A DNA stretch of 64,000 bases, taken from IMG/VR virus record IMGVR_UViG_3300010282_000326; one strand, given 5' to 3'. This document shows, piece by piece, positions 1 through 63,961 of the stretch. How positions within the stretch are numbered: the stretch's first letter is position 1; each line of letters begins with the position of its first letter. The notes under the pieces are model-generated. The model saw only the letters and a list, made by a program, of their open reading frames with translations. It searched no databases and was not told where the DNA came from. Source of the stretch: an uncultured virus (IMG/VR IMGVR_UViG_3300010282_000326) (lineage: Duplodnaviria; Heunggongvirae; Uroviricota; Caudoviricetes). A program made the position numbers and the translations under genes.

Positions 1-486
1 ATGCATAGTATTAGATATCTTGTTAGAGTTTCATATACAAATTTAGATGGTATCAATGACCATCAGGATTATTCTTTTTTAGCTGAAACTAAAGAAGATG
101 CAAAGAAGATTGCACGAGTATTATTTCAATCTGATTACGGAGATTACGGAGACCTAAAGATAGGGGTAAAGGTTATAACTCCAGACCAATCTGAAGTTCA
201 AATGGTAAATCGACAGTTGATTGATGTATATGGTGCAGTTAAAAGTAGTTTTAGAGATTTAACTTATAAACTATTTCTCGATAATTTTAAGAACTTCAAT
301 GGTTATGATTTGAAGTTTGCTTCACATTATTTAGAATTCAAGTTTAAGTTCAGAGGTTTTATTTGTAAAGCAGTTTGGAATGATGGGGTATCCAAAATTG
401 ATGAATCTGAGTTAGTGTTTGAAGCATCAAATAATCGTGTTTATGTTATAAGAGATGAATGTACTTCGGTTTTGATTGGAAATTAG
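1..486 (+). CDS. hypothetical protein (upstream context lies outside the window)
   Basis: 161-aa ORF starting with ATG at base 1; no recognisable motif. Confidence 0.7.
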   Translation: MHSIRYLVRVSYTNLDGINDHQDYSFLAETKEDAKKIARVLFQSDYGDYGDLKIGVKVITPDQSEVQMVNRQLIDVYGAVKSSFRDLTYKLFLDNFKNFNGYDLKFASHYLEFKFKFRGFICKAVWNDGVSKIDESELVFEASNNRVYVIRDECTSVLIGN

Positions 487-648
487 TAACTTATAGTTTG
501 AGAAAGAAACAGAAAAGAAAAGTAACATACTAAAGTTAATAAAGACGCTTTTGTATGTTACTTTTATTATTGCAATGAAGATACTGTACCTAGAGCAGTA
601 TCATTTATATAAATTAAAAGTATATGATTTAAGAAGGGGGACATCTTT

Positions 649-1725
649 ATGAGAAAGAGATTTAGTTTCCTACTCACTTTAGTACTATTACTTGCTTGTT
701 TTTATGTGCCAAGTTTTAGTACAATTTCTGTTCATGCAGCAGCAGATGTAACAACTTGTCCATATTGTGGTGCAGCTATGTCACCAGCTACAGATGCAAA
801 TGGGAAGTATATGTATAAGGTTAAGCCTACTTGTACTAAAGCAGGTTCTATGATTTATCGTTGTACTAGAGTTTTTGATAATGGTGGTAAATGTGGTGGA
901 CAAGGGTTTAAGTCAGTACCAGCAACTGGACATGATTGGGTTGCTATAACTTCAGAAAATGCAAATAAGTATAATGTTAAATCAACAGCTACTTGCACAA
1001 AGAAGGGAGACTCTGTTAGGTATTGTAAAAGTTGCCATAAGCATGAAGTAACAAGTAAAAAAGCAAATTATGTTGGGGGTACTTATTATTTCAGTTTAAA
1101 AGATGGACATAGACTTGCAGGAAAACCAGAAAGTGGGGTTGAGGGTGTTGATTATGTAAGTTATAAATTACAGTCAAAGGGTAATCATGTTTATACTTCA
1201 GCAGTTAGTGGGATTAATTCAGTTGTAGCTAATTACTTTAGTAAGGTTACAAAGCAGCCCACAACAACAAAGAAGGGTACTAAGAAGGATACTTGTTTAA
1301 TTTGTGGTAAGACACATACTACTGTATTAAGTAAGTTAAAGGCACCGACAGCTAAGGCAGAAATCAGCGATAAAATAGAGGATTTTACAGCAGAAAACGG
1401 GGGTACAAAGAAGCTTAGAGTCAGCTATAATAAGCCAGAAGCCAGTGATGAGAATGAGAATGCTACCAAATTTATTTATATCATAGAATATTCCAGAACA
1501 GATAAATTCCCAAGTAGCAGTTCAGCTTATTCTACAAATTTGAAATTAAATAATGCAGATAAGAAGAAAGTATTTATCAGGACAACGAAATCTACAAGTC
1601 TTACAGTAAAGAAGTTAAAGGCTGGAAAGTATTATGTAAGAGTTCGTTATGGAGTATATAGTGGTGCAAAGCGTAACTATATTTACTCTAAGTGGTCGAG
1701 TGTCAAGAGTGTTACAATTAAGTAA
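649..1725 (+). CDS. secreted/surface protein with Cys/His-rich repeats and a C-terminal FN3-like domain
   Basis: Signal peptide ending VHA; repeated PTCTKAG / ATCTKKG / CxxC segments typical of clostridial surface proteins; ends YYVRVR...YSKWSSVKSVTIK as in FN3-type domains. Confidence 0.7.
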   Translation: MRKRFSFLLTLVLLLACFYVPSFSTISVHAAADVTTCPYCGAAMSPATDANGKYMYKVKPTCTKAGSMIYRCTRVFDNGGKCGGQGFKSVPATGHDWVAITSENANKYNVKSTATCTKKGDSVRYCKSCHKHEVTSKKANYVGGTYYFSLKDGHRLAGKPESGVEGVDYVSYKLQSKGNHVYTSAVSGINSVVANYFSKVTKQPTTTKKGTKKDTCLICGKTHTTVLSKLKAPTAKAEISDKIEDFTAENGGTKKLRVSYNKPEASDENENATKFIYIIEYSRTDKFPSSSSAYSTNLKLNNADKKKVFIRTTKSTSLTVKKLKAGKYYVRVRYGVYSGAKRNYIYSKWSSVKSVTIK

Positions 1726-1739
1726 GTAAATAAGTTTCT

Positions 1740-1773
1740 AAAAGGATGGTGTAGTAATACATCATCCTTTTTT
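1740..1773 (+). terminator. intrinsic terminator
   Basis: AAAAGGATGGTGTA / TACATCATCCTTTT hairpin followed by a T-run. Confidence 0.8.
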
Positions 1774-1823
1774 ATTTTATAATATTTTAATATATTATAT
1801 AGTTTATTTAGGAGGTCAAACTA

Positions 1824-10219: not shown

Positions 10220-10263
10220 GATATATTGTATAATATTTAGATTTCAATTTGGAGGTGTTTATT

Positions 10264-11553
10264 ATGGAAGATATGGAAAATCTACCTTATCATAGAAAGT
10301 ATCGACCAAATACATTAACTAAATATATAGGTAATGAAAAGCTTAAAGAGACTGCTATGGCAGCATTACAGGGTAATAAGCGACCTCAGGTTATTTTATT
10401 ATATGGAGATTCTGGTTGTGGTAAAACCACTTTTGCTCGACTGCTTGCTAAGGAGTATTCTTGTGAGAATAGAGATGATGAGCATGGTGCTTGTGGAGAA
10501 TGTCCTAACTGTCAGATGATAGATGAATATATAGTCACTGGTAATTTGGATATGATAACTAATATACAAGAAATTGATATCACAGACCAAAGTGGTAAGA
10601 ATGATTTATCTGCTATCTTAGAGGATATGATGTTACCTACTTATGGAAATGAGTGGAAGATTTATATTCTTGATGAAGCACATCAGGCTTCTCAGGCATT
10701 ACAGAATAGACTTCTTAAGATTACAGAAGAGCCACCAGAACATGTGCTTATAATGTTTTGTACTACTAATCCAGAGAAGTTGATTCCTACACTTAAGAAT
10801 AGATGTCAATTACAACTTCATGTTCAAAAGCCTAAAGTTAAGGAATTAGCAGGTTTACTTCGTTATGTTTGTCAATGTGAACAAGTTGAATATGATATGC
10901 GAGGTCTTGAGTTTATAGCAAACAGAGGCGAATTAACCATAAGAACTGCATTACAGAATCTTCAACAGGTAGTTACGGAGCAACAGTGTGCAGATTATAA
11001 TAGTGCAACTAAGGTATTCGAGACAATTTCTAATGCACTTATTATGGATATTTTTACAGCATTAAAATCCAAGGACGTTTTTAGATTCGTAACTCTCCTT
11101 TACGAAATAAAGGCGAAAATGGATTTAACTGTGTTCTTGACTGAGTTGAAAGGCTTTGTTATTCGAGGTATCTATACTATCAATGGCATAACTTTAGATG
11201 GAGTTTCTGATAATGAGTTGAAGGTATATCGAAATTTATTTGGTGATTTAGGGGTATCTCAAATCAGTTATTTACTTAAAAGATTGCTTAGTTTAGATAC
11301 GAGAAATCTTGAAATAGAACTACTTTCTTTGGGGTATGCAGGTTTGGATTTACCAGTACAAGAAGAGAAAAAAGATGTTGTAATTAAGCCTATTGAAGGT
11401 GAGTTAGCTTTAGAAGAGAAAAATGCAAATTCAGTCATTAAAGAGAAACGAGAGGCTGATTATGATAAAGGTGTTGAGAATGCATCTAATATGATGCAGG
11501 CAGCAAGTATTGAGTCCATTTTAAGTATGGGTGGTTCTTTAGTTAATAAATGA
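10264..11553 (+). CDS. dnaX: DNA polymerase III gamma/tau-like clamp-loader subunit
   Basis: RKYRP N-terminal motif, Walker A GDSGCGKTT, C4 zinc motif, Walker B DEAH, LLKITEEPP, NRC in place of SRC; start reassigned after GGAGG. Confidence 0.9.
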   Translation: MEDMENLPYHRKYRPNTLTKYIGNEKLKETAMAALQGNKRPQVILLYGDSGCGKTTFARLLAKEYSCENRDDEHGACGECPNCQMIDEYIVTGNLDMITNIQEIDITDQSGKNDLSAILEDMMLPTYGNEWKIYILDEAHQASQALQNRLLKITEEPPEHVLIMFCTTNPEKLIPTLKNRCQLQLHVQKPKVKELAGLLRYVCQCEQVEYDMRGLEFIANRGELTIRTALQNLQQVVTEQQCADYNSATKVFETISNALIMDIFTALKSKDVFRFVTLLYEIKAKMDLTVFLTELKGFVIRGIYTINGITLDGVSDNELKVYRNLFGDLGVSQISYLLKRLLSLDTRNLEIELLSLGYAGLDLPVQEEKKDVVIKPIEGELALEEKNANSVIKEKREADYDKGVENASNMMQAASIESILSMGGSLVNK

Positions 11554-26551: not shown

Positions 26552-28681
26552 ATGGGTATACCATTTATAAGTAAGGGTTCAGAGCATCCAAAGCGAACAA
26601 TAAATTTTGTTCAGCTTTGGGATAAAATTGGAACATCTTACATAAAAAAGAATGACTCTAATTATGGCGAAACAAGAACATATAATATGTATGCAGACCT
26701 TTTAGGGTTTTATAGTGGAGAGGATAATGTGAGTTACATTTTTTCTATTGATGGTTATCCTAGAGAAATTGAAAATTCTTATGTGTCCACTTTAAGAAGA
26801 GAGTGTAAAGATGGAGTTAGAATTTCGTTTATAAGTCCTCTTGAGAAAACAGTTATTGAATGGAATTCTCCGCAGATTAGGGCTAAGTTAAGAACTTGGA
26901 GATTAATGGATAATGATGGGGAAGATGTTGATGAGTATAACCTTTTCCAGAACTTAAATATGTTAGATAGTCAGGATTGGAGAAAAGACAGTCTTGTTTA
27001 TCTTTCAACTTCTGAAATAAGAAGAAAGCGTAAACTTTTCAAGTTCAGAACTTTAATGATTATATCAGGAAAGCGAGGGGTAGATTTTAATAATTCTGTA
27101 AAAGAGATTGTCAATTTATGTAAGATAATGAATATTAAAATCTCAAGAGTTATCGGTGATATACCAGAGTATCTTAAAGTATTTAGTCCTTTTTCAAATA
27201 CTTTTGATAATAAGATATTAGATAAATGTGGTTGTATTACTATACCAGATGAATTACTTTCTAGATTTAATACTTATGCACAAGGTACAGTAGGAAGAAG
27301 TGGAATATATTGGGGTACTGATATTTATTCTGCATTCCCTTGTTTGAAACCAGTTAAAGCTACTACAGAGACTGCTGAGAACTGGTTGATAACAGCAGAA
27401 ACTGGTGGTGGTAAGTCATTCTTCGTTAAAGGTATTTTAGTTCAGCTTTTAGCAAAAGACTTATATAATGGTACAATAATGGATGTCGAAGGTTTTGAGT
27501 ATTTACCTTTAGCAAATTATTTATCGAATAATGATGATGTAGTTGTTCTTAATATGGGTGAAGGTTCTGGTGCTTATTATGACCCATTTGAGATTATGAT
27601 AACAGGAGATAAGGACTTGGATGGTGATATGTATTCATTAAGTACATCATTTACTTTATCTTTATTTAAGTGTTTACTTGGTTCAACTCAGGACGATGAT
27701 GAATGGGTTGATATTGTTATAAATGATGCAGTATCATTAACATACGGCAAAGCAGGGGTAGATGCTACTGATATGGATACTTGGAAAAATTCTCATGGCT
27801 TTACTATTTATGATGTTTATGATACTTTAAAGTCATTAAAATCTAATGGTAATGCTACAAGAGCTGTTGCAAGTATGTTTACACACTCATTATACGAGGA
27901 AAAGATGGGTGTAGGTAAAAAGCTTGATAAGAATGATGTTAATAGACTTATAAATGCTAATGAAGGCTATCAGAAAGCTATTGATATGTGTATAGCTAAG
28001 ATTTCTCGTTATTTTGAGCCTAACGGTGTTAGGGCTAGTTTATTTAGAAATCGTATAGATATAAAAGAAGTTCAGGATGCTAAGCTTGTTATTTGTTCAT
28101 TTGGTATGGCAGGTAAGTCACCTAATACAGTAGACCCGATACAGATGGCTTTGATGCAGTTATACTCAGCTAATATTTCACATTTAAGGTCAATATTTAG
28201 TAAGAACAATGGTAAGTTTAACTTTAAACTTTGGGAAGAGTTTCAGCGTTGGGGTGGTTTTCCAGATGCAGATAAAACTATAAATGTTGCTCTTACTGGT
28301 GGTCGTAAGTTAGGTGATATCAATATAATTATAACAAATAAGGTTATAGATATGCTTGAAGATGATAAGTTTGGTGTATTTTCCAATATAACTTCATTTG
28401 CCATAGGTGCTATAGGTGATGCTTATGTTAGAGAGGAACTTTGTAATCGTCTTACAATCCCTCAGATGGCACCAGAGTTGGATAAATTATCTAATGAGAA
28501 TAAAGATTTAGCTCTTTATGTTGAAGGTGATACTCTTATGTCAAATCCGTATAAGAAAGCATTTCTTATTGGACTTGATAGGACAATATATACAATATCT
28601 AAAATGATGATTCCTAAAGAGTTAAGAGAAAGCCATATCTTTAGAACAGGTATCGACTTAAAGAAGAAGGAGGAAAGTTAG
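26552..28681 (+). CDS. VirB4/TraE/TcpF-like conjugation ATPase
   Basis: ENWLITAETGGGKSFFVK Walker A, IMDVEGFEY, YYDPFE, Walker B-like LWEEFQ, GRKLG; about 700 aa. Confidence 0.8.
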   Translation: MGIPFISKGSEHPKRTINFVQLWDKIGTSYIKKNDSNYGETRTYNMYADLLGFYSGEDNVSYIFSIDGYPREIENSYVSTLRRECKDGVRISFISPLEKTVIEWNSPQIRAKLRTWRLMDNDGEDVDEYNLFQNLNMLDSQDWRKDSLVYLSTSEIRRKRKLFKFRTLMIISGKRGVDFNNSVKEIVNLCKIMNIKISRVIGDIPEYLKVFSPFSNTFDNKILDKCGCITIPDELLSRFNTYAQGTVGRSGIYWGTDIYSAFPCLKPVKATTETAENWLITAETGGGKSFFVKGILVQLLAKDLYNGTIMDVEGFEYLPLANYLSNNDDVVVLNMGEGSGAYYDPFEIMITGDKDLDGDMYSLSTSFTLSLFKCLLGSTQDDDEWVDIVINDAVSLTYGKAGVDATDMDTWKNSHGFTIYDVYDTLKSLKSNGNATRAVASMFTHSLYEEKMGVGKKLDKNDVNRLINANEGYQKAIDMCIAKISRYFEPNGVRASLFRNRIDIKEVQDAKLVICSFGMAGKSPNTVDPIQMALMQLYSANISHLRSIFSKNNGKFNFKLWEEFQRWGGFPDADKTINVALTGGRKLGDINIIITNKVIDMLEDDKFGVFSNITSFAIGAIGDAYVREELCNRLTIPQMAPELDKLSNENKDLALYVEGDTLMSNPYKKAFLIGLDRTIYTISKMMIPKELRESHIFRTGIDLKKKEES

Positions 28682-38993: not shown

Positions 38994-40604
38994 ATGAATA
39001 GAGCAAAGGAAGTCACCTATTATAATGATAGGTATAAGGGTTCTCTTTCAGAGGATGTCTGTGATGCTGTAGAACAATTATTAGAGTTGGATTCAGAGAA
39101 TGGTGAGGTTACAGACCTTAAGCATTATATTTATAATATGTCCGATTCTGATGTTACTGATTATATAGAAACAATGGATGCTTTTGGTAGTTGCTTTAAG
39201 GAGTATAATAAACCTTTTGGTACATTGAGAGATGAGCAAACTGTTGGTATAGCCTTAATGTATTATGTAGGAAATTGTATTCTTGGCGATTCAGTTGGTA
39301 TGGGTAAAACTGTAGAAGTAGCAGGACTTTGTAATTTATTAAAGAATGAGTATAAACAAAGGGGTAAATCTTTCAGATACTTACTTTTAACTGAAAAGAA
39401 CTTAGCAGACCAAGTTCGTTCTGAGATGGTTAAGTTTACTGCTGATTATACAACACTTATACCAAGTGGTGAGAAAGATGTAATTGATTATTTTACCAGA
39501 AATAATCCTTTTGATGAAGAGTTAAAATATAGTGTTGTAGGTACTCATGCTTTGTTTACAACATCAGGATTTTTGGCTTGGCTTGAACAAGCTCGTACTT
39601 ATGGTAAGGGTTTCCCATTTGATATGTTAATTGTAGATGAAAGTTCACCTTTAGGTGGTAAGACTACAAATAATATTGTTCAAGGTTTTAAGAACATTAA
39701 GAAATATTTTAAGCGTATTGTATTTTTGAATGCTACACCATTTGAGTCTAAACTTGAAATATTTTTTAATCAATTAAACCTGTTAGATGATAAGTATTTA
39801 CCAACAAAAACTAATTTTCAAAAGCAATATGTTGTAATGGATTATAGGGGTATGTATCCAAAGCCAACAGGCAGGTATAAGAATCAGGCTGAGTTTAAGA
39901 GACTGATAGGTTATAGGTATTTTGCAAGAACTCGTAGGGATAAAGGTGCTGTTATGGAGGATTGTAAGGGTGGTATTGTTTATTCTCCATTATCAAAGAT
40001 ACAGAAAGAGTGGTTAGAAAAGACTCAGTTGAATAGAATGGTATATGATTGCCCTACTTATTTTGATGATACTATTGATTTCTGTATTGAGAATGTACCT
40101 AAGTTAGGTAGTTTGAATAATCTATTATTAAATGATTGTGCTGATGCAGATTCAATTTTAATCTTTTCTCACTTTAAGGAAACTCAGGCTCATCTTTCGA
40201 GATGGCTATCAAATAAGGGGTACTCTAATCGAGTTCTTAATGGTGAAACTAAAGATACAGATAGAGCCAATATTATTAAAGGTTTTAAGAATAAAGAATA
40301 TAAAATTTTGATTACAAATGTCCAGAAAGGTCTTAATTTTGGTGATTGTAATTATTGTATTTTCTTTAGTTTTGACCCTAACCCATCAAAAATGATACAG
40401 TTTGAGGGTAGAACTACGAGAAGTTTCGATATTATAGGAAAGAATGTTTATATTCTTTGTTCTTTAGGTAAGGAAAAAAGACAGTTGCTTGATGTTGTTA
40501 GACAGAGGGCTAAGGCTACAAGTGATATGACTAATACAGATTTATCTGTTGTTATGAGTATCTTATTAGGGGATGATTATAATGAAAATAATAAAGAAGA
40601 GTAA
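38994..40604 (+). CDS. SNF2-like superfamily 2 helicase
   Basis: ILGDSVGMGKT, LIVDESS, LNATP, GLNF, QFEGRTTR. Confidence 0.85.
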   Translation: MNRAKEVTYYNDRYKGSLSEDVCDAVEQLLELDSENGEVTDLKHYIYNMSDSDVTDYIETMDAFGSCFKEYNKPFGTLRDEQTVGIALMYYVGNCILGDSVGMGKTVEVAGLCNLLKNEYKQRGKSFRYLLLTEKNLADQVRSEMVKFTADYTTLIPSGEKDVIDYFTRNNPFDEELKYSVVGTHALFTTSGFLAWLEQARTYGKGFPFDMLIVDESSPLGGKTTNNIVQGFKNIKKYFKRIVFLNATPFESKLEIFFNQLNLLDDKYLPTKTNFQKQYVVMDYRGMYPKPTGRYKNQAEFKRLIGYRYFARTRRDKGAVMEDCKGGIVYSPLSKIQKEWLEKTQLNRMVYDCPTYFDDTIDFCIENVPKLGSLNNLLLNDCADADSILIFSHFKETQAHLSRWLSNKGYSNRVLNGETKDTDRANIIKGFKNKEYKILITNVQKGLNFGDCNYCIFFSFDPNPSKMIQFEGRTTRSFDIIGKNVYILCSLGKEKRQLLDVVRQRAKATSDMTNTDLSVVMSILLGDDYNENNKEE

Positions 40605-42136: not shown

Positions 42137-44323
42137 ATGTCAGAGATTCAGAATGATGATACAACACAGGCTTCTGCCACTCAATCTTATGGTGATGATA
42201 GTATTGAGTTACAGAAAGGTGAATCCAGTGTTCGACTCAGACCTGCGGTAATGCTTGGTTCTGATGGGCTTGATGGTGCTAGACATGGTTTTTCAGAAAT
42301 GTCAGGTAATGCTCTTGATGAGTATTCATGCTTAGATGATAACGATGAAAAGCATAAAAAGCAGTTAGACATCAAGTATTGGAAAGATGGTTCTTTGAGT
42401 ATTCGTGATTATGGTCGAGGTGTTCCGATGGGTTGGAATACTAAAGAACAGAATTGGAATTGGCACTGTGTATATAATATCTTATATGGTGGTGCTAAGT
42501 ATGAAACTCATCAGGCAAGACTTCAGCGTATAACAGATTGGAGTACATTTAATGATAAAGATTACAACTATCTTTATTCAGTTGGTTTGAATGGTCTTGG
42601 TGCAGCTTCTACACAGTTCACATCAGAGTATTTTGAGGTTGAGTCTTACAAAGAAGGCGAGTGTAAGAGAAGAAGCTACAGAAGGGGTAGACCTGTTGTA
42701 AATGGCGAAACCGTAAATCTTTATAGTGGAGATTGGACTATTGACAAGTTAAAAGCTCTTCCAGAGGAAGTTTCAAAAACTGATGAACCAGATGGTACTT
42801 ATGTACATTGGAAACCAGATGATACGATTTTCAGTGATACAAATATTGGTATAGATTGGCTGATTTCTAAGTGTAAAGATATTGCTAAGGTAGCTCATGT
42901 TACAATAAATATTGAAGACGAACATACTGGTCAGAAGTATGTATTTGAGAAAGGTACGATTCAGGATTTAGTTGTTGAGTATGCAGGCTCAAATGCAATT
43001 CGTGATGATGAAGGTAATCCAATCGTCTATTCAACAAATACCTTTACACATGGAAATATAAAGGTAAATAATAATCCTTTTGTTTATGTATTCAAGTGTG
43101 ATATAGCTTTCACACCAGTTACTGCAGAAGTAGATACAGTATGTTTCCATAACTCTGTGAGAATGACTTGGGGTTCACAGTATGATGCAGTTAATTCAGC
43201 ATTAGGTGCATTTTTTAACTCTAAGGCAAAGAGTAGAGGTGTCAAGCTTGAAGCTACTGATTACAGCGATTCTTTTGGGGTAGTTGTTAGTTCTCAGTCT
43301 AATTATGCTTCATTCAGGGGTCAGACAAAGGATGCAGTAGATAATAGTTTTATTTATACTGCAATACAGCAGGCTTTACTTGAAAAGCTTGAAGTTGAGT
43401 ATGGTAAAGGTAATGAAATTATTACAGATGCTGTTGAGCGTGTAATTCGAGAAGCTGAAATTCGTATAGCAAGTAAAGAAACAGCTAAGATTATGCGTGA
43501 AGCTAAGAAAGTTGCAAAAGAGAAAACTCCAGAAAAGTTCACAAGTTGTGATGCTTATGAAAATAAAGAGTATGATAAGGCTGAGTTATGGATTACAGAG
43601 GGTGATTCAGCTAAAGGCTCTATAAAGAATGCAAGAAATAAGGCTTTTCAGGCAATATATCCTATTAAAGGTAAAGGTATCAATGTTGCTAAGAAGTCTT
43701 TAAATAAGGTACTTAAGAATAAAAAGATTCGAGAAATCTTTGCTCTTATTGGTACAGGTTTCGATTTGAATATTAGAGGTGAAAAAACCTTTAATATCGA
43801 GGATTTGAGGTTTGATAAGATTATATTTGCTACTGATGCTGATGAGGATGGTTATCAGATTAGAGTGCTTTTGTTCCTTGTATTTTATAAACTTGCACCT
43901 CAGCTTATTCAGACTGGTCATGTTTATATTGCAGAAACACCTCGTTTCCGAATTGACCTTACTGATAATACATACAGATATGCAAAGGATGATAAAGAAA
44001 GAGATGCTATCCTTAAGGAATGTGTAGGTAGAATTAAGAAAGTTAGCCGATTCAAAGGACTTGGTGAGGTTAATGCAGATGTATTAAGAGAGACTACTGT
44101 ACATCCCGATACAAGAAATCTTATTCCTATCAATATCAACCTTGCAAATCAGGATGAATGCGATTTAATTGATGCAGTTTTCGGTGCTGATAAGTATAAG
44201 CAGAGAAAGAGTATCATCACATCTGTTCTTGGTTGTGACCTTGAGGATGTTATGGATGATGATGCATTAGTTCTTCAGGAAGATGAAGATGATGAGGATG
44301 AAGATAGTCTTGATGAAGAGTAA
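42137..44323 (+). CDS. type IIA topoisomerase B subunit (GyrB/ParE-like)
   Basis: VRLRP, DYGRGVP, GLNGLG, EGDSA, PIKGK, DADEDG, RFKGLGE. Confidence 0.93.
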   Translation: MSEIQNDDTTQASATQSYGDDSIELQKGESSVRLRPAVMLGSDGLDGARHGFSEMSGNALDEYSCLDDNDEKHKKQLDIKYWKDGSLSIRDYGRGVPMGWNTKEQNWNWHCVYNILYGGAKYETHQARLQRITDWSTFNDKDYNYLYSVGLNGLGAASTQFTSEYFEVESYKEGECKRRSYRRGRPVVNGETVNLYSGDWTIDKLKALPEEVSKTDEPDGTYVHWKPDDTIFSDTNIGIDWLISKCKDIAKVAHVTINIEDEHTGQKYVFEKGTIQDLVVEYAGSNAIRDDEGNPIVYSTNTFTHGNIKVNNNPFVYVFKCDIAFTPVTAEVDTVCFHNSVRMTWGSQYDAVNSALGAFFNSKAKSRGVKLEATDYSDSFGVVVSSQSNYASFRGQTKDAVDNSFIYTAIQQALLEKLEVEYGKGNEIITDAVERVIREAEIRIASKETAKIMREAKKVAKEKTPEKFTSCDAYENKEYDKAELWITEGDSAKGSIKNARNKAFQAIYPIKGKGINVAKKSLNKVLKNKKIREIFALIGTGFDLNIRGEKTFNIEDLRFDKIIFATDADEDGYQIRVLLFLVFYKLAPQLIQTGHVYIAETPRFRIDLTDNTYRYAKDDKERDAILKECVGRIKKVSRFKGLGEVNADVLRETTVHPDTRNLIPININLANQDECDLIDAVFGADKYKQRKSIITSVLGCDLEDVMDDDALVLQEDEDDEDEDSLDEE

Positions 44324-44379: not shown

Positions 44380-44994
44380 ATGAATAGTTTTATTTCTATA
44401 GACCTTGAGACTACTGGTTTTTCTACAGAAACTTGTGACATTATTGAAATTGGTGCTTGGAAAATAAAAGATGATGTTGTGGTCGACAAGTTTTGTTCGT
44501 TGGTACGACCTTATATTTATATTCCACGAAATATACAGCAGATAACTGGTATTACAATGGAAGATGTACAAGATTGCGAACCAATAGAGCCTAACCTCAT
44601 TAGTTTATTTGAATTTTGTGAGGATTTACCTTTTTTAGGTCATAATCTACAGTTCGATTATAGATTTTTACTTGCAAAGGGGAAAAATTTAGGTTTAGAT
44701 TTTAGTCTTGATGGTACGAGAACAGGGATTTGTACTTTAAAGCTCGCAAAAAGTCTTTTAAAGTTGGAGTCCAATCATTTATCAGATGTAGCTAGCCACT
44801 TTCAAATAAGTCTTGATGACTCTAAAGGTGGTTATCATAGAGCTGGATATGATTCTTATGTAACCAAGTTAATTTATGATAGATTCAAAGTTTACTATCC
44901 AATGGCTAATGGGGTAGTTCTACCAGAGTTGTTATCTATCGATGATAAAAAGTATGGAAAGGTGGTTAATAATGAAACGCTCTCATTTAGTTGA
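44380..44994 (+). CDS. DEDDh 3'-5' exonuclease (DnaQ/PolC-exonuclease-like)
   Basis: DLETTG, IIEIGA, GHNLQFD, HRAGYD. Confidence 0.9.
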   Translation: MNSFISIDLETTGFSTETCDIIEIGAWKIKDDVVVDKFCSLVRPYIYIPRNIQQITGITMEDVQDCEPIEPNLISLFEFCEDLPFLGHNLQFDYRFLLAKGKNLGLDFSLDGTRTGICTLKLAKSLLKLESNHLSDVASHFQISLDDSKGGYHRAGYDSYVTKLIYDRFKVYYPMANGVVLPELLSIDDKKYGKVVNNETLSFS

Positions 44995-45912: not shown

Positions 45913-46015
45913 AAGTATGTATGAAAAATGAAGTTTACTCTGAGTTCATACAAATTTTTCAAGGTAATTCTTGAGAAGAAATATAGAAAATAGAATATGT
46001 TTTAGGAGGTTTCTT

Positions 46016-48160
46016 ATGAGTGAAGAAAGTTTTGACTTATCCTCGATAAGTAGTGGAGTCCGATATCTTGCTGATGGATACTTCGATTATTGTAGTGAAG
46101 TTATCAGTGGTCGTGCTATTGCAGATTATCGAGATGGTCTAAAGCCAGTTCAGAGAAGAATTATAGTCACCCTTAAGAATGAAAAAGGCTTAGACTATAA
46201 GAAGAGTGCAAGAATTGCAGGAAATACGATGGCTTTACATCCTCATGGTGATGCAGCTATTTATGCAGCCTCAGTTTTAATGACAGATAAAAATGGTACT
46301 CTTGCATTTCCTCTTTTGAGTGGCTCAGGTAGTTTCGGTGGTGTATATAAGACAGACCCAGCAGCAGCCATGCGTTATACTGAGGTTAAGTTACATAGTA
46401 ATACCTTAAACGAGTATTTTGGAGAGTTAAATGGTGTTAGGTTTATTCCAAACTTCGATGCTACTCTTACAGAGCCAGAAGTACTTCCAGTTAGCTTTCC
46501 AGCAGTTCTTGTTAATTCATCAAGTGGTATTGCAGTAGGTTTCAGAACAAATACTCCATCATTTAATTTTAATGATGTGTGTGACCTTGTAACCGAGTAT
46601 ATAGATAATGGTAAATGTACTACAGTTATCTATCCAGACTTTGTAACTGGTGGTTACTATGTCAGAGATGAAAAAGAAGCTCTGAAACTTATGAAGTATG
46701 GTAAGGGAAGAATAAAACTCAGGGGTAGGTCAGTTATCAATGGTAAGAATATTGATGTAACTGAAGTGCCTTATGGTAAGACCATACAAGGTTTACTTAA
46801 GCAGATAAACGATAAAGACATCTCATGTATCAAGAGTGCTTATGATACTGATGACTTTGATAGTGGTATGCTTTTCTCTATCGTATGTACTGCCAAGAAT
46901 AGAACAGATGAAGCTCTTTATGAGTTGTATAAGAACACTGATTTTCAGTATACTTATAGTGCTGATATGACTGTTATTGTTGATGGAGCACCTAAACGAC
47001 TTGGAGTTTGGGATTTGATTGCTAATTGGGTTGCTTGGAGACGAGAAGTTCTTACTAAGGAATATACAGTAAGACTTGAGGCAGCTAATGATGCAATCAG
47101 AGAATCTGAGGCTTTTATGAATATCATAAAAGATGAAGAGAAGAAGATAAAGTTAGTAAATATAATTGCTCAAGAAGGCAGAGATGCAGGTTATAAGTTC
47201 ATAGAAGAGAACTATACGAGAGAAGAAGTTCCTGCTGACCTCATTCAGTTTGTTAGTTCAAGACGACTTCCAGATTACAATGATGGTGGTAAATATACTA
47301 AAGAGTATGAAGTACATAAGAATACTGTAGTTGGTCTTGAGAAGAGTCTTGCTAATATTGATGCAGTTATTAAGGCTCAAATGGAAGCCCTTAAGTTAAA
47401 ATATGGGGTAGCCATGAAGAGAAGAACTGAGATTACAGATACGGATTATGACTTCTCTGAGTCAACAACTAAGGAAGATGTAAAGGTAGAAGATACAAGT
47501 TCTTGTTACTACATCATCAAGAATGGTTTTATTAAAAAGCTCGCATTTACATCAGTTGATGAGTCTGCTGACTTCCAGTTCAGTGGTAAAGCAAATGATA
47601 CTATTGTAGCCATTGATAATTATGGAAGAATACTTCGAGTTTATTGTAATGACTTACCATTTGATTCTGTTTCAAATACTGGTCTTTATATTGCAAGGTA
47701 TTGTGGTATTGAAGCTCCAGATGATTATAGAATTATATGGGCAGGTAAGTTAGAGCCGAAAGAAGTAATGCTTCTGTATAAAGATGGTAATGTTGGCTTT
47801 ATCAATATGGAAGAGTGGATTGGCAATACTCGAAATGTCAGAGTGCTTGAAAGGGGTATTGCTTCAGGATATGCTGATTTAGTTGGTAAGGTATTTGAGG
47901 AAGTTCCCGATGTGCTTTATGTAACTGATACAAGTGGTCGACTTGCTTGGGTTGATACTGCTGATTTGAAGCGTAAAGACCGTACTGCCAGAACAAGAGC
48001 CTTTGTAACAAAGGGTGATGCTCTTATAGATAGCTATGCTTGTTATGGAAGAGATAAGGCAATGTTACTTTTGAATAATGCATCTAACTATTATGGTAAG
48101 CTGAAGGAAATAAACTTAACAGACTTTAGAGGTTCTGCTGAGGATTTCGTACTTATCTAA
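46016..48160 (+). CDS. type IIA topoisomerase A subunit (ParC/GyrA-like, no GyrA box seen)
   Basis: RAIAD.RDGLKPVQRR, KSAR, HPHGD, AAMRYTE (catalytic Tyr), GIAVG; start reassigned after AGGAGG. Confidence 0.93.
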   Translation: MSEESFDLSSISSGVRYLADGYFDYCSEVISGRAIADYRDGLKPVQRRIIVTLKNEKGLDYKKSARIAGNTMALHPHGDAAIYAASVLMTDKNGTLAFPLLSGSGSFGGVYKTDPAAAMRYTEVKLHSNTLNEYFGELNGVRFIPNFDATLTEPEVLPVSFPAVLVNSSSGIAVGFRTNTPSFNFNDVCDLVTEYIDNGKCTTVIYPDFVTGGYYVRDEKEALKLMKYGKGRIKLRGRSVINGKNIDVTEVPYGKTIQGLLKQINDKDISCIKSAYDTDDFDSGMLFSIVCTAKNRTDEALYELYKNTDFQYTYSADMTVIVDGAPKRLGVWDLIANWVAWRREVLTKEYTVRLEAANDAIRESEAFMNIIKDEEKKIKLVNIIAQEGRDAGYKFIEENYTREEVPADLIQFVSSRRLPDYNDGGKYTKEYEVHKNTVVGLEKSLANIDAVIKAQMEALKLKYGVAMKRRTEITDTDYDFSESTTKEDVKVEDTSSCYYIIKNGFIKKLAFTSVDESADFQFSGKANDTIVAIDNYGRILRVYCNDLPFDSVSNTGLYIARYCGIEAPDDYRIIWAGKLEPKEVMLLYKDGNVGFINMEEWIGNTRNVRVLERGIASGYADLVGKVFEEVPDVLYVTDTSGRLAWVDTADLKRKDRTARTRAFVTKGDALIDSYACYGRDKAMLLLNNASNYYGKLKEINLTDFRGSAEDFVLI

Positions 48161-49211: not shown

Positions 49212-49263
49212 TTATTGCTTAATTCAACTTATAATCTATATAAATTATTTAGGAGGTTTTGTA

Positions 49264-49935: not shown

Positions 49936-49962
49936 TTTTAGTTTATTAGGAGTGTTAGTTTG

Positions 49963-51456
49963 ATGGCTGAGGAAGTTTTTCTTACACCAGAAGAGAGGTT
50001 ATCAGACCTTAGTAATACACTTATTCAGAGTATTATAAAGTCTGATGATGTTTCCTTAAATAATAGAAGATTCTTATTTGGGCAGGTAACACCTAAAGTA
50101 TTTAAGGATGAGAACTATATAATTTATACAGTTTTTTATTCCTTTAAGGATAAGGGTATTACTCCAGATGAAGATTTCTTGAGGATGTATCTTCTTAGAA
50201 ATACAAAGTTAATAAAGGAAAGTGCTGAATACATTGATTTAAAGGCTTATGCAGACCTTGATGAAGACCCAAATACAGCTTATGTAGCAGCAGTTACAAA
50301 GCATTTTGTTCGTTTACAAGGTTTAGATGTTGCAGAACCAGAGCCTTTTCGTTTAGCTTTAGAAAAGTATAAGGTTGAGTTCAGTAATTATGAAATAAAT
50401 AAAGCATATTCGCAGGCAAAACTTATACTTTATGATGGATTACAAGTTGGAAGAAGATACTATCAGGGGTATGATGATTCTGTTGCTTATGTTAAGAAGA
50501 AAGTAGCTGATATTGAGGCAGTATTAAATCACACAACAGGTGTTGGTTTTATTGATTCAAGAACAGCAGGTATTGAAGATGATAGTAATGAGGCTAAACC
50601 AATTAAAATTGGTGATTTTGGTCTTATAAATGAGTTAAACGATTATTTGCAGGGGTATTTTACCTCATATTTCTATAGTGTATTGGCACCGACCAAAGGT
50701 GGTAAATCTAAGTTTACAGCTAGAGCAATTCATAACATAGCTATTGAGCATGGATATAATTGTTCAGTTTGGGCACACGAAGGTGGTTATAAGGCTTGGT
50801 GGGCACAGTTAAGGGCTATTCATTTTGAATATCTTTATATAAGAAATAAGAGTGAAAATGAAAGAGTAGCTCCACTATCCCAGAAAGATATACTTGAGGA
50901 TAGATATCCATCTGAGGAAATTCGTAGTTTGGAAAATGCTTCAAGGTTAGACTTATTTACAAATCCAAATTACGGGGTAATAAATATGATTGATAGACCA
51001 TTTAAGGTAGAAACATTCATAGATGAAATTGAAACCTCTGTTCAGTTAAATGACAGTAAAGCGGTACTTATCGACTATTTGCAGTTGATAGGTTGGGATA
51101 CTAAAGGTCTTTCAAAGCCACAAGCCATTGGTCAGGCTTATCAGGCATTACTTGCTTATTGTAAGAAGAGAAATGTTATGGCTATATCACCATCACAGTT
51201 TACTCAAGATTTCATGAATGAGATGGCTAAGTCGAGGGATGGTCAGAGTCATGAGGTTCGTACAGCAGGTGGTGAAAGTTCTGAGATTATAAGAACACCA
51301 GATATAAACATCGCTTTATATGCAAGTACAGAAGACCTTATGAGAAGGAAAATGACTATAATGTCTGTTCCATCTCGTTTAGCAGAGCCTTTCCCAAATA
51401 TAGAAATATATTGTGACCTTTGTAGTTGTGTATTTTCAAGTATAGGAGAAGAGTGA
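49963..51456 (+). CDS. DnaB-like (SF4) replicative helicase
   Basis: Walker A APTKGGKS, HE, Walker B VLIDYLQL, SPSQ, I.RTPD. Confidence 0.8.
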   Translation: MAEEVFLTPEERLSDLSNTLIQSIIKSDDVSLNNRRFLFGQVTPKVFKDENYIIYTVFYSFKDKGITPDEDFLRMYLLRNTKLIKESAEYIDLKAYADLDEDPNTAYVAAVTKHFVRLQGLDVAEPEPFRLALEKYKVEFSNYEINKAYSQAKLILYDGLQVGRRYYQGYDDSVAYVKKKVADIEAVLNHTTGVGFIDSRTAGIEDDSNEAKPIKIGDFGLINELNDYLQGYFTSYFYSVLAPTKGGKSKFTARAIHNIAIEHGYNCSVWAHEGGYKAWWAQLRAIHFEYLYIRNKSENERVAPLSQKDILEDRYPSEEIRSLENASRLDLFTNPNYGVINMIDRPFKVETFIDEIETSVQLNDSKAVLIDYLQLIGWDTKGLSKPQAIGQAYQALLAYCKKRNVMAISPSQFTQDFMNEMAKSRDGQSHEVRTAGGESSEIIRTPDINIALYASTEDLMRRKMTIMSVPSRLAEPFPNIEIYCDLCSCVFSSIGEE

Positions 51457-57645: not shown

Positions 57646-57678
57646 AGGGGTAGTTCTCTGAGACTACCCCTTATTTTT
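57646..57678 (+). terminator. intrinsic terminator
   Basis: AGGGGTAGT / ACTACCCCT plus T-run. Confidence 0.8.
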
Positions 57679-58143: not shown

Positions 58144-58146
58144 TCA

Positions 58147-58920: not shown

Positions 58921-58922
58921 AA

Positions 58923-59222: not shown

Positions 59223-59231
59223 GGAGTTATT

Positions 59232-60484: not shown

Positions 60485-60507
60485 TAGTGTTTATTTAAGA
60501 GGATAAA

Positions 60508-60705: not shown

Positions 60706-60716
60706 GGAGTTAGTTG

Positions 60717-61277
60717 ATGACTTTAGTTGATTTTATTTTAACTTATGAAAGAGATGGAAAGATTGTTTGTAATCTTTTTGACTATTATGAAGAATTTATA
60801 AAGCCTTTAGATGAGAGATTTCGTAATCATAGTTACTATGAAAATGACTTAGTTCTCTGTTATCTTAAAGGACACGCTGATGTAAATCCATCTATGGGTT
60901 ATATCAATGATAAGTTTCATAAAGGTGTTAAACTTTGTCATTGTTTTGGTTGTGGTGCTACTTATAATGTAGTTCGATTAAATCAAGTCATTAGTAGTCA
61001 GTATTTTGATAAAGAACTTTCTGAAAAAGATTCATGTGTTGATTTAGCAAATAAATTTAACATTGATATATCTGAGTTTGATGAGCTTGCTGATGATGAC
61101 TATGAAGGAAAGTATCTTGCTAAATTAAGAAGAATTGAGCAATTAAAGCGTAGATATACTTTTAATGATTTTAAAGATAAACTTCTTGAGCAAAGAAGAG
61201 CAGGAAATGTTAATTTAAGTCAGGTAAATTCAGAGTGTGTTAAAATGATAGCAACAACAAAACAATTGTATGATTAG
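60717..61277 (+). CDS. stand-alone CHC2-type (primase-like) zinc-finger protein
   Basis: LC...H.DVNPS...CHCFGCG...CVDLA; too short to include a TOPRIM domain. Confidence 0.7.
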   Translation: MTLVDFILTYERDGKIVCNLFDYYEEFIKPLDERFRNHSYYENDLVLCYLKGHADVNPSMGYINDKFHKGVKLCHCFGCGATYNVVRLNQVISSQYFDKELSEKDSCVDLANKFNIDISEFDELADDDYEGKYLAKLRRIEQLKRRYTFNDFKDKLLEQRRAGNVNLSQVNSECVKMIATTKQLYD

Positions 61278-61286
61278 GAGGCTGTT

Positions 61287-61745: not shown

Positions 61746-61783
61746 GGCATCTTAATATAATATTTTAAAGTTTGGAGGAAATT

Positions 61784-62986
61784 ATGGTAAAGAAAAAGTT
61801 GTTTTGTGGTTTAGTTGTGGGTGCACTTATGATTTCTATGTGTGCTTGCGGAAAGACAGAGAAAAGTGGCATGACTTCGGAACAGGCTAAGGAAGTCGCT
61901 TCTACATTGGTTTCAACTGTTACTGAAGCTGATAAAGAAGTTACTGCTGAAAGTTTGCTGAATGGTATCGACAGTGAAGCTCACAAAGAAGATACTATGA
62001 AAGCTAAAATGACTTTCGTAACCGATATGGAGTCAACAATGACTGAAGGCTCAAATGAAAAAGTAGCTTTCAAAATGAGTGCTGATATAGATGTTGTAGG
62101 AAATAAGACAGCATCTCATGCAACTGGAAACATGGCTATTGATGTTTTAGGAATGCAAAGCACTCAAGGGGTAGAAACCTACTCAGTTCTTGAAGATGAC
62201 GGTACAATTACAAATTACTCTTTAGACACCTTAAAGGGTGCTTGGACAAAGGAAGTGAATAGTGCAGGTAATTCTTTTGATACCAGTACTTATATGAATT
62301 CTATGAAGAGTGATTATTTTACAGACCTTAATCTTGAAGAAACAGAAGAGGGGTATGTAGTTACTGGTAATATCAGTGCAGGTTATCTTAGTGATTCTCT
62401 TATGGATGCAACTGGTGAGTATGCTAATATGACATCTGTAGATGATGAACAGCTTGTATTCGTAACCTTAACATTTGATAAGGATACAAAGGAGGTTAAG
62501 AAACTTGTATTTGATATGGGTAAGGCTATGGGTGATGCTGAAAAGCTCAATGTAAAAGAGTTTACTGTGACACTTGATATTCTTGGTTATAGTAAGGATG
62601 CTGTTGAAGTTCCAGAGAGTGTAAAAACTAATGCAGTTGATGCTTCTGAGTTAGAAGATGTTGAAACAAGTACTCAGAGTGATGCAGCTCTTGACCTTGA
62701 TAACACCCCACTCAATAAGTTATTTGGTCTTTCAGATAAGCCAGATGCTGAAGAAGTAAAGCTTTATGGAAATGGTAGTTTCGATAATGCTTCTGATGAT
62801 GTTGTAAATGTTATAGTTCAGTTATCCACTATGACAATGACAGAAATCAATGAAAAATATCTTGCAAAGTATTCAGAGCAGGATGACAATACAAAAGATG
62901 CTATAGCCTATATAGTTAAGGCAGGTTGGATAACTCTTGATGAAACCTCGGATGAGTTAACCGAACGAATTAAGAATTTAAAGTAG
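61784..62986 (+). CDS. lipoprotein (DUF6612-like beta-rich architecture)
   Basis: Lipobox MCAC; start reassigned after GGAGG. Confidence 0.75.
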   Translation: MVKKKLFCGLVVGALMISMCACGKTEKSGMTSEQAKEVASTLVSTVTEADKEVTAESLLNGIDSEAHKEDTMKAKMTFVTDMESTMTEGSNEKVAFKMSADIDVVGNKTASHATGNMAIDVLGMQSTQGVETYSVLEDDGTITNYSLDTLKGAWTKEVNSAGNSFDTSTYMNSMKSDYFTDLNLEETEEGYVVTGNISAGYLSDSLMDATGEYANMTSVDDEQLVFVTLTFDKDTKEVKKLVFDMGKAMGDAEKLNVKEFTVTLDILGYSKDAVEVPESVKTNAVDASELEDVETSTQSDAALDLDNTPLNKLFGLSDKPDAEEVKLYGNGSFDNASDDVVNVIVQLSTMTMTEINEKYLAKYSEQDDNTKDAIAYIVKAGWITLDETSDELTERIKNLK

Positions 62987-62990
62987 TCAC

Positions 62991-63028
62991 TAAGGGGTAG
63001 CATCTAAGGTGTTACCCCTTATTATTTT
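62991..63028 (+). terminator. intrinsic terminator
   Basis: TAAGGGGTAGCA / TGTTACCCCTTA. Confidence 0.75.
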
Positions 63029-63073
63029 AGGGGGAGAAATTGGGGTAGCCAATGTAAGTGAGGAAGAAGAATA

Positions 63074-63961
63074 ATGAGTTATGCTAATGTTATTATTGAA
63101 AAACCTACAGTGTTAAATTTATTTAAGACCATACCGAGTGGTATTGGTTTAGATATTGCCAAAAACCATTCAGGTATTACTATTTGGAATGGTGAGACTA
63201 TTGAAACTTATGGTTTCTCTATTGATGAGTATTCTAAGGATGATTATTTTGCTGAATATCGTATGAGAAAACAGTTTAAAGAGAAACTTACTAATATAGT
63301 TTGTGGTAGACATTTTGAGTATTGTGTTATAGAAGATGTATATGGTGGTGAGAATTTTGATACCACTAGGAAATTGCTTGCATTACAAACTGTAATTGAT
63401 GAATTGATTTTTTCAAGAATTTGTACTGTTGGTGAGTTCTATAGATGGAATGAACCTAAGTGGTCTAAATATACAAGAATGTTTTATAAACAAAAAGGAA
63501 AATTAAAGTCTAAAGTTGAAACACAAGGTATCTTAGATTTCCTTGAATTTGATTTTTACAAGGAACATTGTGAGGATAAGCCAGCTAAGAAGCGAGAAAT
63601 CTTTTTTGAGGATATTTGTGATTCTTGTGCAATATTGCTTTCTGTAGTCGCTTATAAAAAATTACAGTTAAATATTGCACAGTCAAGCTCTCTTAAGCTT
63701 TCTGATATTAAAATGTATTATATCGAGGATATTATGGATACTTATGGCTTTAAGGATAGAAGGATAGCTGAGGAAGCCTATATTTTGGCTGATATTAATA
63801 CAAGGAATATTGAGAAGGATATTTTACTATTAGCAGGTATGTATCCTAATGATGTTATTTGTGTGGAACTGCCAGTTGATAAGTTAGGTAACTTTGGTTT
63901 GAAGCATGGCTTTAAGTTTTACTCAAGTGGCGAGGGGTACTTGTTTTTCTATAAGAAATAA
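63074..63961 (+). CDS. RuvC-like (RNase H fold) Holliday junction resolvase with C-terminal extension
   Basis: GIGLDIAKNHSG, CVIED, K, EDICDSCAI catalytic pattern. Confidence 0.65.
   Translation: MSYANVIIEKPTVLNLFKTIPSGIGLDIAKNHSGITIWNGETIETYGFSIDEYSKDDYFAEYRMRKQFKEKLTNIVCGRHFEYCVIEDVYGGENFDTTRKLLALQTVIDELIFSRICTVGEFYRWNEPKWSKYTRMFYKQKGKLKSKVETQGILDFLEFDFYKEHCEDKPAKKREIFFEDICDSCAILLSVVAYKKLQLNIAQSSSLKLSDIKMYYIEDIMDTYGFKDRRIAEEAYILADINTRNIEKDILLLAGMYPNDVICVELPVDKLGNFGLKHGFKFYSSGEGYLFFYKK

Follow-up and report, generated by a model that had tools for sequence, protein, structure and literature searches.

The hexamer GGGGTA is a real, strongly selected and strand-polar signal in nucleic acid that is carried throughout a family of giant mobile elements and whose word evolves with lineage. 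It was found in a 64,000-nucleotide stretch of DNA (hereafter the window, meaning the whole stretch that was analysed) from the uncultured virus record IMGVR_UViG_3300010282_000326 in IMG/VR. Judging from its predicted proteins, the window is part of a giant conjugative element of the pXO16 family and a distant, collinear relative of pXO16 (pBTHD789-1, NC_018516.1), the 350-kb conjugative plasmid of Bacillus thuringiensis sv. israelensis. An earlier reading of the letters alone (the sequence-only reading) had described the hexamer as a polar signal of an element; the element is borne out, and its membership of the pXO16 family, indicated by collinear homologues, is added here.

Strand polarity of GGGGTA in the window

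An exact count gives 85 GGGGTA on the + strand and three on the - strand of the window, in agreement with the estimates of about 85 and about 3 in the sequence-only reading, whose eleven example coordinates, as well as position 27312, are all among the counted sites. Dinucleotide shuffles (n = 100, both strands counted) gave a mean of 11.0 occurrences (standard deviation 3.4, maximum 20), and none reached the observed 88. The hexamer makes up 85 of the 134 hexamers that start with GGGG (63%, near the two thirds of G runs estimated earlier), while GGGGTG occurs only 8 times. The array and its minus-strand matches are as follows.

163..63939, + strand: GGGGTA array with the consensus W-GGGG-TA-K; 85 sites, mean gap 759 nt, largest gap 2309 nt
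6486, 57665 and 63013, - strand: the three minus-strand GGGGTA matches
57647..57670, + strand: terminator-like hairpin AGGGGTAG...CTACCCCT followed by a T run; the 5' arm is a + motif and the 3' arm the minus match at 57665
62994..63018, + strand: second terminator-like hairpin built from the motif, with a + site at 62994 and a - site at 63013

Two of the minus-strand matches (57665 and 63013) are therefore the 3' arms of AGGGGTAG...CTACCCCT hairpins with T runs after them, which confirms the earlier placement of two such matches in terminator stems, and the third lies 30 nt after a + site. The accessory left end of the window (1-8.5 kb), which has no homologues in relatives, carries 12 GGGGTA sites.

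The G+C content of the window is 30-36%, every 4-kb segment has more G than C (skew +0.23 to +0.40), and all long open reading frames (ORFs) are on the + strand. Many words are polar in this DNA, with its G-over-C skew and co-oriented genes. Since coding alone makes many of the window's words polar, a codon-preserving test was essential.

A signal in the nucleic acid rather than in the code

The gene set consisted of 57 + strand ORFs covering 94.9% of the window. Within these coding sequences, GGGGTA occurs 77 times, compared to 16.1 +/- 3.4 in 500 synonymous-codon shuffles (maximum 27), a 4.8-fold enrichment (z 17.8). The signal thus survived the shuffle that the sequence-only reading had named as its refuting test. 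Among all hexamers GGGGTA ranks first against this shuffle, followed by its own overlapping sub-words. The reverse complement TACCCC occurs once, with 0.67 expected, and is not depleted; the strand asymmetry is therefore due to enrichment on the + strand and not to avoidance on the - strand. For the same reason, namely enrichment of the forward word without depletion of its reverse, an avoidance of one orientation in the style of Type III restriction was rejected.

A by-product of mutation, codon-pair or composition bias would need no reader, and the strong G-over-C skew together with the co-oriented genes does make many words polar. This explanation is contradicted by the behavior of the other words. 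Polar words such as GATGATGA (54 observed, 55.5 expected) and GAAGATGA (64 observed, 49.9 expected) are accounted for by coding under the synonymous shuffle, and the one-mismatch neighbors TGGGTA (20 versus 22.8) and GTGGTA (41 versus 37.1) are not enriched. It is contradicted as well by the over-even spacing of the sites and by the discrete variants with three, four or five Gs described below, and AT-rich, skewed and co-oriented control DNA lacks the motif. We consider a by-product scarcely credible. A second tier of polar words also exceeds the synonymous shuffle in the window, namely GACCCA (14 versus 0 on the other strand), AGACCC (11 versus 0), and CAGACC (16 versus 2); in coding sequences, CAGACC was observed 16 times with 2.7 expected.

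The sites are distributed over frames 0, 1, and 2 (37, 25, and 15, respectively), and eight more are present in the approximately 3.3 kb (5% of the window) that is intergenic. The sequence-only reading had reported the motif in all three frames and in intergenic DNA, and its frame calls at 11251, 26041, and 27312 are correct. There are 240 positions at which the encoded amino acids are compatible with GGGGTA, and 77 of these are realised, at about 32% in each frame (37 of 114, 25 of 82, and 15 of 44), whereas codon usage predicts 15.7 in total. More than half of the GGG codons in the window's genes (52 of 91) fall within the motif. Such frame-independent realisation excludes a translational reading, though not one in RNA. 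Internal ribosome pausing at Shine-Dalgarno-like sites was also rejected as an explanation, because the TA is invariant (8 GGGGTG versus 85 GGGGTA) and because one of the lineage-specific words, GGTATC, does not resemble a Shine-Dalgarno sequence.

The spacing of the sites is more even than expected from a random process, as the sequence-only reading had suggested checking. The coefficient of variation (CV) of the gaps in the window is 0.64, compared to 0.98 for random placement, and none of 5000 simulations was as low. The largest gap of 2309 nt is short relative to the random mean of 3731 nt (P 0.007), and only three gaps are below 100 nt where 10.3 are expected. Drawing sites only from the 240 compatible positions gave the same picture (CV 0.625 versus 1.0, 0 of 5000 as low).

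One polarity around complete replicons of the pXO16 family

Homologues of 22 of the 57 window proteins are collinear on the coding strand of pXO16 between 118 and 177 kb, with 24-46% identity, and 21 of the 57 match a complete element in IMG/VR, IMGVR_UViG_3300045988_154631 (G001), which is 179,785 bp long and has terminal repeats. Searches of plasmid and phage collections with the window revealed no nucleotide similarity, and a genome scan with the single FtsK-like protein as query returned no relatives. DNA of the window occurs in bovine, sheep, and other gut or rumen-type metagenome assemblies from several studies, with no RNA data set among the listed matches. All genes are on one strand in the window, in pXO16, and in G001. 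Consistent with this, two reviews ascribe to pXO16 a single orientation of all coding sequences, few database homologues, and a suspected phage-like nature (PMC6199540, PMC9673590). G001 (direct terminal repeats, rated 100% complete) and a second record, L111 (IMGVR_UViG_3300011936_000138), are filed as viruses, yet both are collinear, pXO16-like, and carry conjugation ATPases.

On pXO16, GGGGTA is present 658 times on the coding strand and five times on the other, with 40-54 sites in each 25-kb bin. The G-over-C skew is positive in every one of these bins, so the comparison of polarity with skew around a complete replicon, proposed in the sequence-only reading, gives a single polarity throughout. 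As in the window, most GGGG runs (658 of 870) continue with TA. The mean gap is 531 nt with a CV of 0.71, and the largest gap is 2071 nt versus 3768 nt at random (0 of 5000 as low). Approximate ORFs of pXO16 contain 479 sites, with 95.4 +/- 9.5 expected from synonymous shuffling. In the complete 180-kb G001 the counts are 246 versus 6, at 6-18 sites per 10 kb and on one strand throughout, and its approximate ORFs contain 220 sites versus 54.0 +/- 6.1 after shuffling.

To extend the comparison, relatives were collected with a profile of a replication gene of the window, which served as the family marker.

49960..51456, + strand: DnaB-like replicative helicase, 498 aa; family marker for collecting relatives

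The search recovered 63 metagenome loci and two loci from viral collections, with 25-75% identity. These 65 loci, 1.06 Mb in all, contain GGGGTA 1466 times on the + strand and 25 times on the - strand, and the + count exceeds the - count in all 65. Many of the loci are near-copies from different samples and thus do not represent 65 independent cases. Individual sites are poorly conserved. Across 12 orthologue pairs, an aligned pXO16 site is present at only 3 of the 25 window sites, and an aligned G001 site at 1 of 25. Because the motif is kept while its sites turn over, is realised equally in all frames, exceeds the synonymous shuffle 4.8-fold, and is evenly spaced, it is a signal in the nucleic acid. 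The "DNA-level polar signal" of the sequence-only reading therefore holds as a nucleic-acid signal that is not a codon or amino-acid effect, but its restriction to DNA is less secure, since an RNA-level role that was absent from that reading is also conceivable.

The word changes with lineage

De novo ranking of words revealed a constant GGTA core with flanks that vary by lineage. The following classes were distinguished.

Class G4, (A/T)GGGGTA(G/T): window clade and pXO16; reference class
Class G4, GGGGTAT(C): a large G4 clade; exact-four-G word enriched 3.4-6.2-fold
Class G5, GGGGGTA: L051 and L062; 34 and 31 observed versus about 1 expected, with sites of exactly four Gs depleted to 0.4-0.5-fold
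Class G3, (A)GGGTA(T): 12 loci; 1.7-2.9-fold
Class GGTATC, GGTATC / GCGGTATC: L104, L105, and L107; 40-47 versus 0-2 on the other strand
Weak class, GGGTATT: a clade at 28% identity; weak enrichment

These classes follow the phylogeny of the DnaB-like protein. A tree with 52 rows requires six changes of motif class, compared to a mean of 22.7 when classes are shuffled. Word density is 1.2-2.8 per kb in the G4, G5, GGTATC, and weak classes, while the density expected by chance varies about 30-fold; GGGTA, the shorter word of class G3, is more frequent at 3.2-5.2 per kb. Variation in the word combined with a steady density points to a reader that is probably encoded by the element and co-evolves with its site, and to selection on the density of sites.

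The motif accompanies the replication module and not the conjugation module

Two conjugation ATPases are encoded in the window.

26552..28681, + strand: VirB4/HerA-like conjugation ATPase (Pfam); homologue in the pXO16 transfer region
32425..34722, + strand: FtsK/SpoIIIE-family ATPase, coupling-protein-like, 765 aa; motor domain only

The second of these has a long N-terminal low-complexity part, rich in G, Q, and N and then very acidic (D/E/W repeats), with membrane-like segments ahead of the motor domain, and its homologue in pXO16 has the same layout. One role offered in the sequence-only reading was a guide for the FtsK-family ATPase like the orienting sequences KOPS (of FtsK), SRS (of SpoIIIE), or TRS. 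Such a guide would orient the FtsK-family coupling ATPase, or the SNF2 ATPase, for one-way pumping of DNA during transfer or segregation. The word is indeed polar and over-represented, and an ATPase of the appropriate family is encoded. Co-evolution with FtsK has been described for KOPS (PMC3384302). Single-stranded transfer of pXO16 through a distant type IV secretion system (T4SS) takes a minimum of 3.5-4 min for 350 kb, and neither a relaxase nor an origin of transfer (oriT) is reported as identified (PMC6199540, PMC9673590). However, pXO16 also mobilizes plasmids that lack any transfer functions (PMC9673590). The constant polarity on pXO16 and G001 leaves no convergence point, and a scan of the 765-aa protein, in Pfam only, detected FtsK_SpoIIIE at residues 448-598 and no gamma domain. 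KOPS are not known to be evenly spaced at intervals of about 0.5 kb.

Relatives of the conjugation module also argue against this role. Contig L021 of Clostridioides difficile CD160 is co-oriented and has homologues of 7 of the 57 window proteins, among them the VirB4-like (42%) and FtsK-like (43%) ATPases. Its FtsK-like protein is closer to that of the window than is the pXO16 protein (38%), yet all GGTA variants are near their expected frequency on this contig, and the same is true of the Lachnospiraceae contig L023, which also has an FtsK-like gene. No member of the DnaB-like family was found in the CD160 genome. The presence of the motif tracks the replication module rather than the conjugation module, and a KOPS-like guide is in our view improbable. 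The words that rank highest in L023 were considered as a polar motif and rejected as a coding tandem repeat; at 4920-5064, within a coding region beside conjugation genes, this contig has eight tandem copies of an 18-bp unit (with ATGACCCTGGC).

The third role proposed earlier was a Chi-like site, which would tame a helicase-nuclease (the host AddAB/RecBCD or an enzyme of the element), protect rolling-circle tails or broken forks, and stimulate recombination. The polarity is co-oriented with the presumed direction of replication, and pXO16 and G001 each encode one UvrD-family helicase. These helicases are 719-745 aa long, however, which is the size of PcrA/UvrD and not of AddA or RecB. A Chi site would be expected in the host, and in the host-side DNA, for which co-resident plasmids and contigs of metagenome-assembled genomes (MAGs) served as proxies in place of a Bacillus chromosome, the word is neither enriched nor polar. 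On the co-resident B. thuringiensis plasmids, GGGGTA occurs 19 and 15 times per strand in the 128 kb of pBtoxis and 15 and 21 times in the 235 kb of pBtic235. The closest T4SS relative of the window, L019, lies in an Oscillospiraceae MAG (G004) and has 5 versus 0 GGGGTA in 5.6 kb, while the first ten contigs of this MAG (81 kb) contain seven, four sense and three antisense. The same word is present in elements from Bacilli and in elements associated with gut Clostridia, and close relatives differ (G4 versus G5), so a reader belonging to the element fits better than host AddAB. We regard a Chi-like role as very unlikely.

A C. difficile origin region with equal skew and co-oriented genes contains 6+3 GGGGTA in 50 kb. 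This sequence (L034, PLSDB NZ_CP149720.1) was rejected as a relative and kept as a control only. It comprises positions 1-50000 of a record of 163 kb that is catalogued as a plasmid of C. difficile, and the genes of this record (dnaA, dnaN, recF, gyrBA, rpmH, rnpA, ribosomal protein genes, and dnaB) look like those of a chromosomal origin region.

A candidate reader and the primosome genes

The DnaB-like helicase at 49960..51456 was matched to PHROG 19, "DnaB-like replicative helicase" (E 9e-13), and scored 21.5 bits against Pfam DnaB_C, below the cut-off. The profile of its family matches only DnaB in the PDB (E 6e-4), and the window protein is 42-45% identical to its counterparts in pXO16 and G001. 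Approximately 9 kb downstream is a gene for a candidate reader of the motif.

60714..61277, + strand: stand-alone DnaG-type CHC2 zinc-binding protein, 187 aa, without a Toprim domain; candidate motif reader

By sequence comparison, this protein is a stand-alone DnaG-type CHC2 zinc-binding domain. The window protein itself scores 16.3 bits against PF01807, below the cut-off of 24.9, while its homologues in pXO16 and G001 score 44.8 and 48.8 bits and are the sole match on each replicon. The predicted zinc ligands C49, H54, C77, and C80 are conserved without exception in the 14 aligned members, and the family profile matches only the DnaG zinc-binding domains 1D0Q (E 6e-9) and 2AU3. In 49 of 67 sequences the gene is located 4-11 kb downstream of the DnaB-like gene, and most of the others are too short to tell. 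A Toprim_2 protein of about 262-275 aa is encoded once each in pXO16 and G001, beyond the region homologous to the window. The primase of the family thus looks split, with a zinc-binding protein near the DnaB-like gene, Toprim_2 far off on the replicon, and no full-length DnaG. The coordinates listed for this split primase are as follows.

60714-61277, window
44525-45310, pXO16 record (L001)
136018-136776, G001

A Pol III alpha domain was not detected in pXO16 or G001.

GGGGTA as a possible primase site

We tentatively propose, with somewhat less than even confidence, that GGGGTA is where a split DnaG-type primase, encoded by the element and acting with the DnaB-like helicase, recognizes its template and starts. 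Among the three roles offered in the sequence-only reading, a primase site fits best; the motif occurs together with the replication module (the DnaB-like and zinc-binding genes), and its GTA core fits d(YTA). In Firmicutes, DnaG initiates synthesis at the central T of d(CTA) or d(TTA); its specificity is determined by the zinc-binding domain, which is able to work in trans (PMC2978363). The T7 primase gp4 makes ACCC on templates containing GGGTC and ACCA on 3'-CTGGT-5', with a cryptic 3' base (PMC9198812), and the primase of AtTwinkle recognizes 5'-(G/C)GGA-3' with two cryptic bases (PMC5737085). Every motif class retains the GTA core, in agreement with the d(YTA) of Firmicute DnaG, though this is a match of compatibility only.

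From the counts, their conservation, the lineage variants, and the gene content we infer as follows what reads the motif, which primer is made, and in which direction replication runs. The motif strand is the G-rich, gene-sense strand around whole replicons, which fits a fork moving co-directionally with the genes, the direction being taken from the skew. Since genes, G excess, and motif share one strand all around the replicon, that strand would always be the one displaced as single-stranded DNA, and the lack of a polarity switch fits unidirectional or rolling-circle replication. The displaced strand could be the lagging-strand template of a unidirectional fork, a rolling-circle tail, or the strand sent to a recipient. 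The DnaB-like helicase would move 5' to 3' on it, and the split primase, made up of the stand-alone CHC2 protein and the small Toprim protein, would scan the extruded strand. Synthesis would start opposite the T of 5'-GGGGTA-3', with the 3' A cryptic, and the predicted primer is pppACCCC; the corresponding primers would be ACCC for class G3 and ACCCCC for class G5. Such a C-rich primer may be stable in a genome of 32% G+C. A long, G-rich site arises by chance only about once per 6 kb, so selection would have added sites to spacers and, by way of synonymous codons in every frame, to genes, until there was one per 0.35-0.8 kb and no gap above about 2.3 kb. Even spacing would be expected if each stretch of template needs a site.

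Several observations weigh against this proposal. The Toprim gene is not within the window. The residue pair before HCFGC, which sets specificity in DnaG, has no link to motif class, as it is IF in the G4, G3, and weak classes alike; covariation of zinc-finger beta4 residues with motif class was also considered and dropped, there being no simple rule and too few independent contrasts. As a control, the three known primase words of phage T7 occur 161 times on the + strand and 159 times on the - strand, with a CV of 0.92-1.0 and a mild excess, and thus offer no precedent for a polar, even array. To our knowledge, primase sites are 3-5 nt long, and a G-counting site of 6-8 nt would be longer than any other. 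Two distant DnaB-like genes occur in a Lachnospiraceae MAG (G003) along with two stand-alone zinc-binding ORFs, yet about 30 kb of its contigs, possibly from more than one element, show no enrichment of GGTA-type words. A complex prediction for the DnaB-like helicase and the zinc-binding protein scored 0.09 (mark 0.32), which is evidence in neither direction and is counted here among the weaknesses. Genes are co-oriented with the motif in every member examined, so the strands of replication and transcription are inseparable. Finally, the link between the motif and priming is a proposal from sequence. The four genes of G003 are on contigs C248, C347, C161, and C322, and two elements or strains may be present there.

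The same co-orientation bears on a role in transcription or in RNA. RNA polymerase or a cofactor could read the non-template strand, as at the operon polarity suppressor (ops) element, or an RNA-binding protein or nuclease could read GGGGUA in the mRNA; the signal might then tag transcripts as belonging to the element, or sustain processive transcription over long co-directional stretches. Because every gene in the window, pXO16, and G001 is co-oriented with the motif, such a role keeps some weight. GGGGTA resembles the GGTAG part of the ops element, the nucleic-acid-binding protein SpoVG is encoded by the element, and the motif forms the 5' arm of the two terminator-like hairpins. However, a NusG/RfaH-type domain is absent (PF02357, 0 of 2: pXO16 and G001), and an even series with one site per approximately 0.5-0.8 kb (1.3-1.9 per kb) exceeds by far the single loading site expected for each operon. 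We judge a transcription or RNA signal unlikely, though second in likelihood after a primase site.

Other features of the window

Further genes of the window with recognizable products are listed here.

10249..11553, + strand: DnaX-like clamp-loader ATPase (Pfam DNA_pol3_delta2, E 1e-30; 39-42% identity to pXO16 and G001)
38994..40604, + strand: SNF2-family helicase (Pfam); conserved replication-side module
42137..44323, + strand: GyrB/ParE-like type II topoisomerase subunit
44380..44994, + strand: DnaQ-like 3'-5' exonuclease of the RNase_T family (Pfam)
45971..48160, + strand: GyrA/ParC-like subunit; best database match pXO16, 37.6% identity

Most proteins of the window had no family in the Pfam scan, which also detected SpoVG, MscS, and an S41 peptidase. 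Likely cargo of a cellular type is situated amid the replication genes, including SpoVG (38623-38904), an MscS-type channel (58147-58920), an S41 PDZ peptidase (59378-60484), and SIMPL/DUF541 (49204-49935), and each of these genes carries or adjoins GGGGTA sites; the MscS-like and S41 genes have sites within them. A large protein of 1922 aa (16017-21785) has no family but has homologues in pXO16 and G001, and another of 1040 aa (52651-55773) has only a weak match to a TFIIB-type zinc ribbon. Scans of the window for tRNAs and Rfam families returned nothing.

Significance of the motif

The motif seems to be undescribed. We found no published account of it in the literature on pXO16, on over-represented primase sites, or on skewed oligomers, with the primary pXO16 sequence paper and its supplements beyond reach. 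pXO16 has been under study for decades as an unusual conjugative plasmid, and a hexamer with a polarity of 658 to 5 has seemingly gone unreported. The "Hodor" megaplasmids were rejected as members of the same family, as they have 44.6-47.1% G+C and Rep_3; the words "strand", "skew", and "orientation" are absent from the accessible text of the paper describing them (PMC12934698).

Whatever reads it, the motif is a sequence handle on replication or on the hand-over of DNA and predicts which strand is displaced, and also the primers if it is a primase site. The G3, G4, G5, and GGTATC words form a natural specificity series for a zinc-finger primase or another reader. The motif can also serve as a simple marker by which to detect and bin members of this large and poorly annotated family in metagenomes, including records that are filed as viruses. 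It is possible, though we would put it short of an even chance, that this family of giant one-strand Firmicutes elements (about 130-350 kb, from Bacillus and associated with gut Clostridia) has a replicon-wide "priming code", in which a split primase needs a 6-8-nt site of a G run and TA, selection has written that site every 0.35-0.8 kb into the displaced strand, by way of synonymous codons and spacers and with terminator stems included, and the code has co-evolved in steps through GGGTA, GGGGTA, GGGGGTA, and GGTATC. If so, the predicted primers range from pppAC3 to pppAC5, and these would be the first replicons whose primer start sites are legible from sequence and would provide the first genome-wide primase footprint.

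Comparison with known systems

The nearest known system is pXO16 itself, which shares with the window the 22 collinear homologues among 57 proteins, genes on one strand, and the same polarity of GGGGTA. It differs in that the window comes from an element of the ruminant gut without nucleotide similarity to it, and in slightly different flanks, since pXO16 prefers A at position -1 (70%) and excludes a fifth G. KOPS (read by FtsK) and SRS (read by SpoIIIE) are likewise over-represented, strand-polar short words under selection that co-evolve with their reader (PMC3384302). They switch strand at the origin and dif and are read in the duplex by a gamma domain, whereas here neither feature is seen and the density is far higher. 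Chi sites, the signals for RecBCD and AddAB, resemble the motif in being polar, over-represented, and co-oriented with replication, but they are a property of the host chromosome, while here host-side DNA lacks the word and the word differs between close relatives.

The DNA uptake sequences and uptake signal sequences of Neisseria and Pasteurellaceae occur about once per kb with over-even spacing, lie within coding DNA, are often paired in terminator hairpins, and are 9-12 nt long and not known to keep to one strand. GGGGTA is like them in density, over-even spacing, placement in coding DNA, and terminator hairpins. The uptake words are longer and not one-stranded, and we know of no competence-type receptor for this element.

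Among primases, the family differs from those known in that its enzyme seems to be split into zinc-binding and Toprim proteins. T7 gp4 (5'-GGGTC, TGGTC, GTGTC) and Firmicute DnaG share with the proposed site a short word on a single-stranded template, a start opposite T that gives pppA, and a 3' base that is not copied. In T7 the G run also templates a C-rich primer (ACCC), and specificity set by a CHC2 domain, in trans, is familiar from DnaG. The difference lies in the word and its placement, which in these elements is 6-8 nt long, counts Gs, and is enriched, one-stranded, and even, compared to the 161 and 159 sites on the two strands of T7.

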